Positions 20,989 to 23,380 of a stretch of DNA of 38,979 nt are shown here, in pieces. This DNA is from Escherichia phage LM33_P1, in sequence record NC_031937.1. One strand, written 5' to 3'. The notes under the pieces were generated by a model that saw only the letters and a list, made by a program, of their open reading frames with translations, was not told where the DNA came from and made no database searches. The translations under genes and the position numbers were made by a program. The number at the start of each line of letters is the position of its first letter. The first letter of the stretch is position 1.

Positions 20989-21011
20989 ACTAAACTATCA
21001 CTATAGGGAGA
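20989..21011 (+). promoter_or_regulatory. Phage RNAP promoter, exact class III-like (CTAAACTATCACTATAGGGAGACC) upstream of capsid gene
   Basis: Best consensus match; followed by 5' stem-loop GGGAGACC...GGTTTCCC and AT-rich leader, as for T7 phi10. Confidence 0.8.
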
Positions 21012-21114
21012 CCAAGAGACAGACTCAAGGTTTCCCCTATTACTTAAGTCCATACGGATTGGGCGTACAGTAAGTAATAAACTTTATTTTTCAATTGAAT
21101 AGGAGAATTATCAT

Positions 21115-22164
21115 ATGGCAAACGTTCCGGGTCAGAAAGTTGGTACAGACCAAGGTAAAGGCAACTCTGGTTCCGACGCTCTGGCGTTGTTCCTGAAGGT
21201 ATTTGCTGGCGAAGTCCTGACCGCATTCACTCGCCGCTCTGTAACTGCTGACAAGCATATTGTCCGTACCATTCAGAACGGTAAGTCTGCTCAGTTCCCG
21301 GTCATGGGTCGCACCTCTGGTGTGTATCTGGCTCCGGGTGAGAGACTGTCCGATAAGCGTAAAGGTATCAAACATACCGAGAAAGTGATTACCATTGATG
21401 GTCTGCTGACTGCCGATGTGATGATTTTCGACATTGAAGACGCGATGAACCACTATGACGTGGCTGGTGAGTATTCCAACCAGTTGGGTGAAGCTCTGGC
21501 TATCGCTGCCGATGGTGCGGTACTGGCTGAGATGGCTATTCTGTGTAACCTACCGGCTGCATCTGATGAAAACATCGCTGGTCTTGGCAAAGCGTCTGTG
21601 CTGGAAGTTGGTACTAAAGCAGACCTGAACACTCCGGCTAAGCTGGGTGAAGCAATCATCGGTCAACTGACCATTGCTCGTGCGAAGCTGACATCCAACT
21701 ACGTTCCTGCTGGCGACCGTTACTTCTACACCACGCCGGACAACTACTCTGCAATCCTCGCGGCTCTGATGCCGAACGCTGCTAACTATGCTGCGCTGAT
21801 TGACCCAGAGACTGGTAACATCCGTAACGTAATGGGCTTCGTGGTTGTTGAAGTTCCACACTTGACTCAGGGTGGTGCTGGGGAAACTCGTGGTGCCGAT
21901 GGTATCACTATTGCGACTGGTCAGAAGCACGCCTTCCCAGCTACTGCTACTGGTGATGTTAAAGTTGCTCTGGACAACGTTGTGGGCCTGTTCTCTCACC
22001 GTTCTGCTGTAGGTACTGTTAAGCTGCGTGACTTGGCGCTGGAACGTGACCGTGACGTCGATGCTCAGGGCGACCTGATTGTTGGTAAGTACGCTATGGG
22101 TCACGGTGGTCTGCGTCCAGAAGCAGCAGGCGCACTGGTTTTCACAGCGGCGTCAGCGGGTTAA
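21115..22164 (+). CDS. 10: Major capsid protein 10A
   Basis: Similarity to T7 gp10A; strong RBS; 349 aa. Confidence 0.93.
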   Translation: MANVPGQKVGTDQGKGNSGSDALALFLKVFAGEVLTAFTRRSVTADKHIVRTIQNGKSAQFPVMGRTSGVYLAPGERLSDKRKGIKHTEKVITIDGLLTADVMIFDIEDAMNHYDVAGEYSNQLGEALAIAADGAVLAEMAILCNLPAASDENIAGLGKASVLEVGTKADLNTPAKLGEAIIGQLTIARAKLTSNYVPAGDRYFYTTPDNYSAILAALMPNAANYAALIDPETGNIRNVMGFVVVEVPHLTQGGAGETRGADGITIATGQKHAFPATATGDVKVALDNVVGLFSHRSAVGTVKLRDLALERDRDVDAQGDLIVGKYAMGHGGLRPEAAGALVFTAASAG

Positions 22165-22427
22165 CGACCTTTAAGGCCCTCTCTACAGAGGGTCCTACCT
22201 TAGAGACGTATAGTTCTACGGTGGGAACCAGCCTGAAGGTTGACTTCCCTGAGCTTTCAGATGTGACCGATTGGTCGCTGCTTGAGGTGACTACGCCTGA
22301 TGGTGTTAGCTACTCCCGTAGAACCAACAGTCTCTACTTCAAGGCCACCTCTGGCGTGGAAGGTCTGGTGATTGTTGGGTATGACGGGACGCCTGTGCGT
22401 TCCTTCAACGTATCTTTCACAAACTAA
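22137..22427 (+). CDS. 10: Capsid 10B C-terminal extension reached by -1 frameshift at GGTTTTC
   Basis: -1 frame is open from the slippery run GGTTTTC (22137-22143) to TAA at 22427; same arrangement as T7 10A/10B. Confidence 0.55.
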   Translation, partial: GFHSGVSGLTTFKALSTEGPTLETYSSTVGTSLKVDFPELSDVTDWSLLEVTTPDGVSYSRRTNSLYFKATSGVEGLVIVGYDGTPVRSFNVSFTN

Positions 22428-22430
22428 TTG

Positions 22431-22470
22431 AAACCCCTTGGGTGCCTTCGGGTGCTTGAGGGGTTTTTTT
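22431..22470 (+). terminator. T-phi-like terminator for phage RNAP (G-U-rich hairpin plus T7 tract)
   Basis: AACCCCTTGGGTGCCTTCGGGTGCTTGAGGGGTTTTTTTG closely resembles T7 T-phi. Confidence 0.85.
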
Positions 22471-22485
22471 GCTTAAGGAGGGACT

Positions 22486-22575
22486 ATGGTCCTTATTTAC
22501 ACAGGGTTAGCACTATTCGTCTTATTCTGGGCGTACCTGCTGTCCAGCTCACCGTCTAGCGCCTATGACCGTTAA
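22486..22575 (+). CDS. Small hydrophobic peptide (29 aa) between T-phi and gene 11
   Basis: Strong RBS TAAGGAGGG 5-7 nt upstream of ATG; MVLIYTGLALFVLFWAYLLSSSPSSAYDR; below the ORF-track cutoff. Confidence 0.4.
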   Translation: MVLIYTGLALFVLFWAYLLSSSPSSAYDR

Positions 22576-22586
22576 GGAGTAAACCT

Positions 22587-23153
22587 ATGGCTCAATACAT
22601 TCCACTGAATGCTAACGATGACTTAGATGCCATCAACGATATGTTAGCAGCTATCGGTGAACCAGCAGTCCTACAGCTTGACGAAGGTAACGCTGACGTC
22701 TCGAACGCTCAACGTATCCTGCATCGTGTCAATCGTCAGGTCCAAGCTAAAGGCTGGAACTTTAACATCAACGAAGCTGCTGTCCTGACGCCTGATGTCC
22801 AAGACAACAGGATTAGATTCCTGCCGTCTTACCTTCGGGTCATGACTGCTGGTGCTACCAGTTACTACAGCAACATGGGGGGCTATCTCTATGACCTGTC
22901 CACTCAGTCCACGACCTTCACTGGACCAATTACAGTCGAACTGGTGGAGATGAAACCGTTCGCTGAGATGCCTGTAGTATTCCGTGACTACATCGTTACC
23001 AAGGCTAGCCGTGAGTTCAACGCTAAGTTCTTCGGTAGCCCAGAGTCTGAACTGTACCTTCGTGAGCAGGAAGCAGAACTCTATCAGCAGGTTATGGAAT
23101 ACGAGATGGACACTGGTCGCTACAACATGATGTCTGACATTGGGAGGGACTAA
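22587..23153 (+). CDS. 11: Tail tubular protein A
   Basis: Similarity to T7 gp11 (..ND.L..IGEP.V..L..G); RBS TAAGGAG. Confidence 0.85.
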   Translation: MAQYIPLNANDDLDAINDMLAAIGEPAVLQLDEGNADVSNAQRILHRVNRQVQAKGWNFNINEAAVLTPDVQDNRIRFLPSYLRVMTAGATSYYSNMGGYLYDLSTQSTTFTGPITVELVEMKPFAEMPVVFRDYIVTKASREFNAKFFGSPESELYLREQEAELYQQVMEYEMDTGRYNMMSDIGRD

Positions 23154-23380
23154 TGGCTAGTCACAACCTGAAGATTCACCGCCAGCACTTTGGTCCGGTA
23201 CAGCTAGGTCTAAAGACAGCAGAGCTGAGACTTAACGACCGGGACTTTAAGGTTGGCGACTGGCTTATCCTGAATGAGTGGGACAACGGGTATACTGGAC
23301 AACAGGTAGCACGTAAGGTTGTCCACATTGCTGACGTTGGTGACATCGCTGAGGGATACGTCCTAATGAGTATGATTTAA
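23153..23380 (+). CDS. Small ASCH/PUA-like (DUF3850-type) protein (75 aa)
   Basis: Pattern LKIH...F.....G.KT.E.R.NDRDF.VGD.L.L.EWD...YTG......V..I recalled as typical of ASCH-like domains; ATG overlaps gp11 stop (TAATG). Confidence 0.6.
   Translation: MASHNLKIHRQHFGPVQLGLKTAELRLNDRDFKVGDWLILNEWDNGYTGQQVARKVVHIADVGDIAEGYVLMSMI

Follow-up and report, generated by a model that had tools for sequence, protein, structure and literature searches.

Gene 10 of Escherichia phage LM33_P1 (Kayfunavirus LM33P1, a K1F-like member of the T7 group) is very probably decoded in two ways, yielding the 349-aa capsid protein 10A and, by a -1 slip of a minority of ribosomes, a 437-aa minor capsid protein 10B that would display an Ig-like domain. 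All positions are those of the window, i.e. the whole stretch of 38,979 nucleotides analysed (NC_031937.1), unless another locus is named. Over the query, the window shows 100% identity to the Kayfunavirus LM33P1 record OZ035813.1 (38,979 bp). A preliminary description of this DNA had proposed a T7-type -1 frameshift signal in the capsid gene, and this reading was favoured by every computational test applied, covering the heptamer, the open frame, selection, start sites and annotated relatives.

The slip site and the -1 frame of gene 10

The features of the locus are as follows.

20990-21013, + strand: phage RNA-polymerase promoter-like sequence CTAAACTATCACTATAGGGAGACC, upstream of gene 10, read from the sequence
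21115-22164, + strand: gene 10A, major capsid protein, 0 frame; 349 aa, 36.3 kDa (Pfam Gp10A-like, E 5e-105)
22089-22161, + strand: overlap region of 24 codons in which a -1 shift would lead to the long product; last upstream -1-frame stop at 22086-22088
22137-22143, + strand: slippery heptamer G_GUU_UUC (GGTTTTC, phased G_GTT_TTC in the 10A frame), identical to the T7 gene 10 shift site
22143-22196, + strand: -1-frame linker of 10B, residues 344-361, HSGVSGLTTFKALSTEGP; ~18 aa, AlphaFold2 pLDDT ~40
22197-22427, + strand: -1-frame predicted Ig-like beta-sandwich of 10B, residues 362-437, with TAA at 22425-22427
22430-22474, + strand: T-phi-type intrinsic terminator from a terminator scan, a 17-pair hairpin (22430-22467) plus T-run

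The 10A protein shares 95% identity with deposited Kayfunavirus major capsid proteins, and its gene ends with a TAA stop at 22162-22164. The core TCACTATAGGGAGA of the promoter-like sequence agrees with the T7 promoter consensus, and the records of CR8, K11 and T7 show an annotated promoter at the corresponding place. The preliminary description had placed GGTTTTC nine codons before the 10A stop, and this count holds, with GTT lying eight sense codons ahead of TAA and the codon of the first G being the ninth. The -1 frame, described as open for 97 codons, was recovered as 96 sense codons from GGT at 22137 followed by the TAA, and it does end right before the T-phi hairpin, with the hairpin and T-run lying 3 nt past the stop. 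Taken over its entire length, the open -1 frame extends from 22089 to 22427; its first ATG, GTG or TTG codon is located at 22221, so that the first 44 codons contain no start codon. Within the overlap region, TTTT is the sole run of four identical bases.

The heptamer is present at the homologous position in T7, K1F, CR8, K11, Pokalde_002, TH20 and TH50 and, together with CTGGTTTTCA, is invariant in an alignment of eight sequences from three genera. One IMG/VR relative carries A_GUU_UUC (AGTTTTC) in place of G_GUU_UUC, which points to the U_UUC Phe slip as the constant core of the signal. Such a core agrees with the TTTTCA slip of Kvp1, whose 10B protein was proven by mass spectrometry (PMC2579914).

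In the proposed mechanism, most ribosomes would pass through G_GUU_UUC and stop at 22162-22164 to produce 10A, and a presumed minority would slip back by one base, with tRNA-Phe exchanging UUC for UUU and tRNA-Val exchanging GUU for GGU. As in T7, this would be a -1 slip on G_GUU_UUC, of two tRNAs in tandem or of a single tRNA, in which G_GU takes the place of X_XX (PMC5009743; the details of the T7 signal and the identity of the T7 shift site are taken from this review, Atkins 2016). The slipped ribosomes would stay in the -1 frame up to 22427 to give the predicted 10B (45.9 kDa, with a net gain of 88 aa over 10A), consisting of a complete HK97-fold subunit to Phe343, a flexible linker of ~18 residues and a 76-residue Ig-like beta-sandwich. 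A few copies of this 10B would co-assemble with 10A in the virion. The predicted junction peptide is YAMGHGGLRPEAAGALVFHSGVSGLTTFK, and ALSTEGPTLETYSSTVGTSLK, VDFPELSDVTDWSLLEVTTPDGVSYSR and ATSGVEGLVIVGYDGTPVR are predicted peptides of the extension.

Selection on the -1 frame and alternative readings

The selection analysis was carried out on the region past the 10A stop in 14 distinct Kayfunavirus sequences having the 96-codon form. Enterobacter phages 03/04_vB_Eclo_IJM were left out of consideration as their genes are fragmented by apparent indel errors. The pN/pS ratio was 0.23 in the -1 frame vs 1.45-1.75 in the other two frames, and the variable sites at the first, second and third codon positions of the -1 frame numbered 14, 15 and 46, respectively. 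Within these 87 codons, none of the 14 sequences had a stop in the -1 frame, the other frames of each containing 4-6 and 6-10 stops, respectively. From the 10A stop to the GTG at 22221, which most annotators take as the start, the 20 codons (22164-22223) gave a pN/pS of 0.29, with 4/5/11 variable sites by codon position. The -1 frame, including these 20 codons upstream of the GTG, is thus the only frame under purifying selection. The stop counts and pN/pS values, both frame-specific, replaced an earlier control, the genome-wide length of -1 overhangs past stop codons, which was non-discriminating (median 38 codons, with many >100) because downstream genes often begin in the -1 frame. The same heptamer and open frame were found in Caroctavirus CR8, Przondovirus K11, Pokalde_002 and TH50, with 42-50% aa identity in the extension; judged from these sequences, the combination of heptamer and open -1 frame is more than chance and is kept in three genera.

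Conservation of the heptamer alone is weak evidence, because the heptamer lies inside conserved capsid coding sequence. This location is compatible with the -1 frame being a non-functional remnant, the heptamer being kept only as Val-Phe codons of the capsid C-terminus, as is the fact that one genome (L023, described below) tolerates a truncated domain. The strong frame-specific purifying selection and third-position excess nevertheless argue against a remnant, as do the retention of a foldable domain across three genera with 14 invariant residues, its confident predicted fold and the number of phage records carrying the module (453), making this explanation extremely improbable. A different origin of the long product has also to be considered, i.e. 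slippage of the phage RNA polymerase, rather than of the ribosome, at the T4 run of the shift site, since the protein made after transcriptional slippage can look like that of a -1 frameshift. The run is, however, merely four bases long, and slippage-prone sites are normally far longer homopolymers. The conserved X_XXY_YYZ-like phasing is important for the re-pairing of tRNAs and irrelevant to a slipping polymerase, and the identical T7 site is classed as ribosomal frameshifting (PMC5009743), so that a transcriptional origin appears very unlikely.

The extension ORF is annotated in many records as a free-standing small gene, which in LM33_P1 would encode 68 aa from GTG 22221 with its own initiation, and K11-type sequences do have a GTG with a moderate SD-like GAGG. 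In LM33_P1, however, the SD duplex of the GTG amounts to only -2.9 kcal/mol, compared with -7.3 to -12.6 kcal/mol for genes 10, 11 and 12. Candidate starts are found at codons 29, 10, 11 or 26 depending on the lineage, so their position is not conserved, and they have no SD ahead of them; gene callers have returned products ranging from 54 to 87 aa, so that there is no agreed start for this ORF. Moreover, in all intact loci the frame runs on unbroken from the conserved heptamer, the 20 codons before the GTG are stop-free in all lineages in addition to being under selection, and a start at GTG 22221 would remove the first predicted beta-strand (model residues 23-28). The weak SD, the shifting starts, the selection upstream of the GTG and the lost strand together make a free-standing gene unlikely for LM33_P1.

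An extension of 10B by frameshifting is a kind of arrangement that is already known, and it is annotated correctly in a few close relatives. The CR8 record has a joined -1 10B CDS with a 'tttt' slip site and the statement 'matches in mass spectrometry analysis', and Peacock (98% identical DNA) has a joined -1 'minor capsid protein' CDS citing CR8. In most other GenBank records, the module is split off as a hypothetical or 'minor capsid protein', mislabelled or omitted. In vB_EcoP-U8, it is 10A that is labelled 'minor capsid protein 10B'; the module is labelled 'XRE family transcriptional regulator' in EcpYZU01 and 'putative capsid assembly protein' in PP74, and it is unannotated in the K11 RefSeq record.

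The predicted Ig-like extension module and its exchange

AlphaFold2 prediction of the extension, based on a 33-sequence alignment, gave a disordered linker (model residues 1-20) followed by an all-beta domain (model residues 21-96) modelled as a 7-strand Ig-like beta-sandwich with a pLDDT of 88-92. The top structural matches of this domain in PDB and BFVD were Ig-like, and an Ig-like fold is therefore predicted with confidence. At the sequence level, no Pfam match was obtained at E<1 for the LM33_P1, K11 or CR8 modules, and the module belongs to PHROG 7473, annotated as 'unknown function' (E 7.2e-37, residues 17-96 against profile positions 2-82 of 82). An hhalign comparison with the T3 Big_2 extension gave a probability of 0.1%, and since the two share no profile-level similarity the LM33_P1 module belongs to a separate sequence family. 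Across the three genera, 14 residues of the module are invariant, including the VTDW and RRTNxLYFK motifs; it may be speculated that they form a binding patch. No paper in the library searched gives a fold or function to the LM33_P1-type module; the extension is not treated in the phage H5 cryo-EM paper or in Green et al. 2021, and the CR8 genome announcement is silent on it.

Large bacterial proteins with 4-13 matched stretches in HMMER searches were considered as tandem Ig repeats or homologues of the module and were rejected, since by Pfam and by their sequences they consist of ELWxYDGT/beta-propeller-type repeats that share only a ~30-aa strand-turn-strand motif with it, the score being raised by repetition (down to E 1e-14 summed over 7 repeats). 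The resemblance concerns extension residues ~54-92 (22296-22412), where RRTNSLYFK...YDGTPVRSF is similar to a unit of the bacterial ELWxYDGT/beta-propeller-like repeats (P0141, P0145), and was judged to be a motif-level likeness and not homology.

In K1F, frameshift fusions of 10B to GFP and adhesins gave viable virions displaying these proteins, from which the C-terminus of gp10 is external; the 10B domain of LM33_P1 would for this reason be shown on the capsid surface. The predicted Ig-like sandwich on a flexible linker, together with an external gp10 C-terminus, fits the preliminary suggestion that the extension could serve in surface decoration or binding. By analogy with what has been proposed for other phage Ig-like domains, its most likely role would be weak multivalent adhesion to host-surface or environmental glycans. 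If this adhesin reading is true, the domain could influence host finding or mucosal persistence of LM33_P1 and of Klebsiella KP32-like phages.

The LM33_P1-type module was detected by tblastn in 453 phage records, with Klebsiella (285), Escherichia (52) and Salmonella (35) as the commonest organism names, and all 60 rows sampled corresponded to T7-like genomes of ~38-42 kb. Among the matches sampled, the module had no other location than the 3' end of a T7-like gene 10. For comparison, the T3 Big_2 module was found in 266 records covering many unrelated phage types and the K1F-type tail in at least 35 records, the latter count being a lower bound as the query is short and of low complexity. 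Among the 120 best database proteins (cluster representatives, all of 10A length), the domain was never fused in-frame to the capsid, with query coverage ≤80%, a result that agrees with selection for display in sub-stoichiometric amounts.

The -1 extensions fall into three kinds, i.e. a short Ala/Glu-rich tail in T7 and K1F (58 and 50 codons from the heptamer, respectively), Big_2 in T3 and the present module of 93-98 codons in LM33_P1, CR8 and K11. Along gene 10, LM33_P1 and K1F share 90-100% identity as far as the heptamer; the two cannot be aligned over ~22150-22425 and become near-identical again at the terminator. As the two phages differ only between the slip site and the terminator, the extension behaves as a cassette exchanged between two conserved anchors. 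In comparison with KP32-like phages, the LM33_P1 module shares 42-46% identity and the capsid body ~78%; on these sequences the module diverges faster than the capsid body. In a wider and more tentative reading, the module may represent an undescribed Ig-like family confined to T7-like capsids and a third independent cargo at a 'frameshift socket', swapped within a genus, that could act as a glycan or cell-surface adhesin.

A natural deletion of ~160 nt was observed in L023 (IMGVR_UViG_2974604219_000001) at ~1660-1700 of that locus, equivalent to window positions ~22301-22460. The Ig-like domain thereby loses its C-terminal half and the terminator its stem, leaving a truncated -1 frame fused to a small hydrophobic ORF. 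This suggests that the Ig-like domain and T-phi are dispensable, or else L023 may be an assembly or laboratory variant.

Comparison with known systems and neighbouring elements

The T7 10A/10B pair and the Ig-like frameshift extension of T3 are textbook recoding cases (PMC5009743), the T3 case being restated in the Peru-2 preprint. T7 shares with LM33_P1 the G_GUU_UUC at homologous codons of a homologous capsid gene, similar first residues past the shift (F-Q/H-S-G-V), a T-phi terminator with an AACCCC arm directly after the 10B stop and the lack of a canonical nearby stem-loop. As stated in the preliminary description, the T7 extension is shorter by comparison, at ~53 aa (345 aa for 10A and 398 aa for 10B, a net gain of 53 aa); it is Ala/Glu-rich and not Ig-like, whereas the net 88 aa of LM33_P1 end in a predicted folded beta-sandwich. 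The -1 frameshift of T3 and phiYeO3-12 also adds a C-terminal Ig-like domain of ~80-90 aa to 10B (PMC5009743; Peru-2 preprint), but T3 slips on C_CCA_AAG instead of G_GUU_UUC and its domain belongs to Pfam Big_2 (E 4.5e-10), found as well in the tail and surface proteins of numerous phages of other types, in contrast to the LM33_P1 module with no Pfam family. K1F, the type species of the genus, matches LM33_P1 in gene 10 as far as the heptamer and again in the terminator, and its 10B has been used experimentally for GFP and adhesin display; it differs in its short T7-like extension, counted as 50 codons from the heptamer or as 44 added triplets (PMC6277420). The same module behind the same heptamer is found in Peacock (96-98% identity), CR8 (50%) and the K11/KP32-like Klebsiella phages (42-46%), LM33_P1 being one further carrier with no difference in kind. 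The best structural matches, i.e. the C-terminal domain of lambda gpV, T4 Hoc and N4/Hoc-like decorations, are likewise small 7-strand beta-sandwiches on a virion protein. They differ by sharing only 10-20% sequence identity with the module and by either standing alone as decoration proteins or being joined to other proteins as in-frame or +1/-1 extensions.

The terminator of LM33_P1 is almost identical to the annotated terminators of T7, K11 and T3, and its sequence AAACCCCTTGGG...GAGGGGTTTTTT, with the AAACCCC arm included, is invariant across three genera. In T7, an unexplained long-range stimulation of frameshifting involves the CCCC of the terminator, over 200 nt from the shift site (PMC5009743). 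The AAACCCC arm of LM33_P1, ~290 nt from the slip site, corresponds to this CCCC and by analogy may have a stimulatory role. No conserved stimulatory structure was found 5-9 nt downstream of the heptamer, and the LM33_P1 segment had a z of -1.3; this matches T7, in which the stimulator is long-range (PMC5009743). A nearby RNA stimulator is not claimed, as the hairpins that each lineage has 20-35 nt past the heptamer are non-homologous and a synonymous change in TH20 breaks the LM33_P1 stem.

Each lineage has a different stable hairpin beginning 10-35 nt past the 10A stop or slip site, located as follows.

LM33_P1, 22174-22196 of the window: lineage hairpin
K11 (locus L006), ~1448-1475: lineage hairpin
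CR8 (locus L005), ~1506-1545: lineage hairpin

The segment z values were significant for K11 (-3.2) and CR8 (-3.5) and not significant for LM33_P1 (-1.3). It was also observed that GGGUU at 22158-22162, in the context of the 10A stop, is complementary to AACCC at 22432-22436, which lies in the terminator's 5' arm. In T7 there is a GGGGG ~20 nt past the slip site facing the terminator CCCC, and K11 and CR8 have no G-run at the place of LM33_P1 22158-22162. One idea suggested by these sequences is that pairing between the G-run and the C-run of the terminator could be the basis of the unexplained long-range stimulator.

The present findings leave the current understanding of recoding unchanged; their use lies in assigning a predicted fold to PHROG 7473, in arguing against a stand-alone ORF and in the picture of a swapped cassette. 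Hundreds of Kayfunavirus and Przondovirus genomes, including many phage-therapy candidates, have the module filed as a free-standing hypothetical protein or missed, and annotation as a joined -1 10B CDS is advised. The interval from slip site to terminator behaves as a socket for at least three unrelated cargos (the T7/K1F tail, T3 Big_2 and the Ig-like module), making it a natural counterpart of the T7 and K1F display vectors and suggesting selection for low-copy surface decoration. An Ig-like domain displayed on the capsid may affect how therapeutic phages adhere to mucus or tissue, as well as their immunogenicity and pharmacokinetics, and it marks a tolerated engineering site.

Two small ORFs were observed downstream of the locus. 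Between the terminator and gene 11, a 29-aa hydrophobic ORF (22486-22575; MVLIYTGLALFVLFWAYLLSSSPSSAYDR) with a strong SD (AAGGAGGG) has neither a Pfam nor a PHROG match and resembles a single-pass membrane peptide; the vB_EcoP-101136BS1 record lists it as hypothetical, K1F and Peacock lack it, and L023 has a divergent version. Between tail genes 11 and 12, which directly follow each other in K1F, LM33_P1 has an inserted 75-aa ORF (23153-23380) with a DUF3850/ASCH (PUA-like) domain (Pfam E 1.9e-19) that matches PHROG 986, 'RNA-binding protein' (E 2.8e-35).
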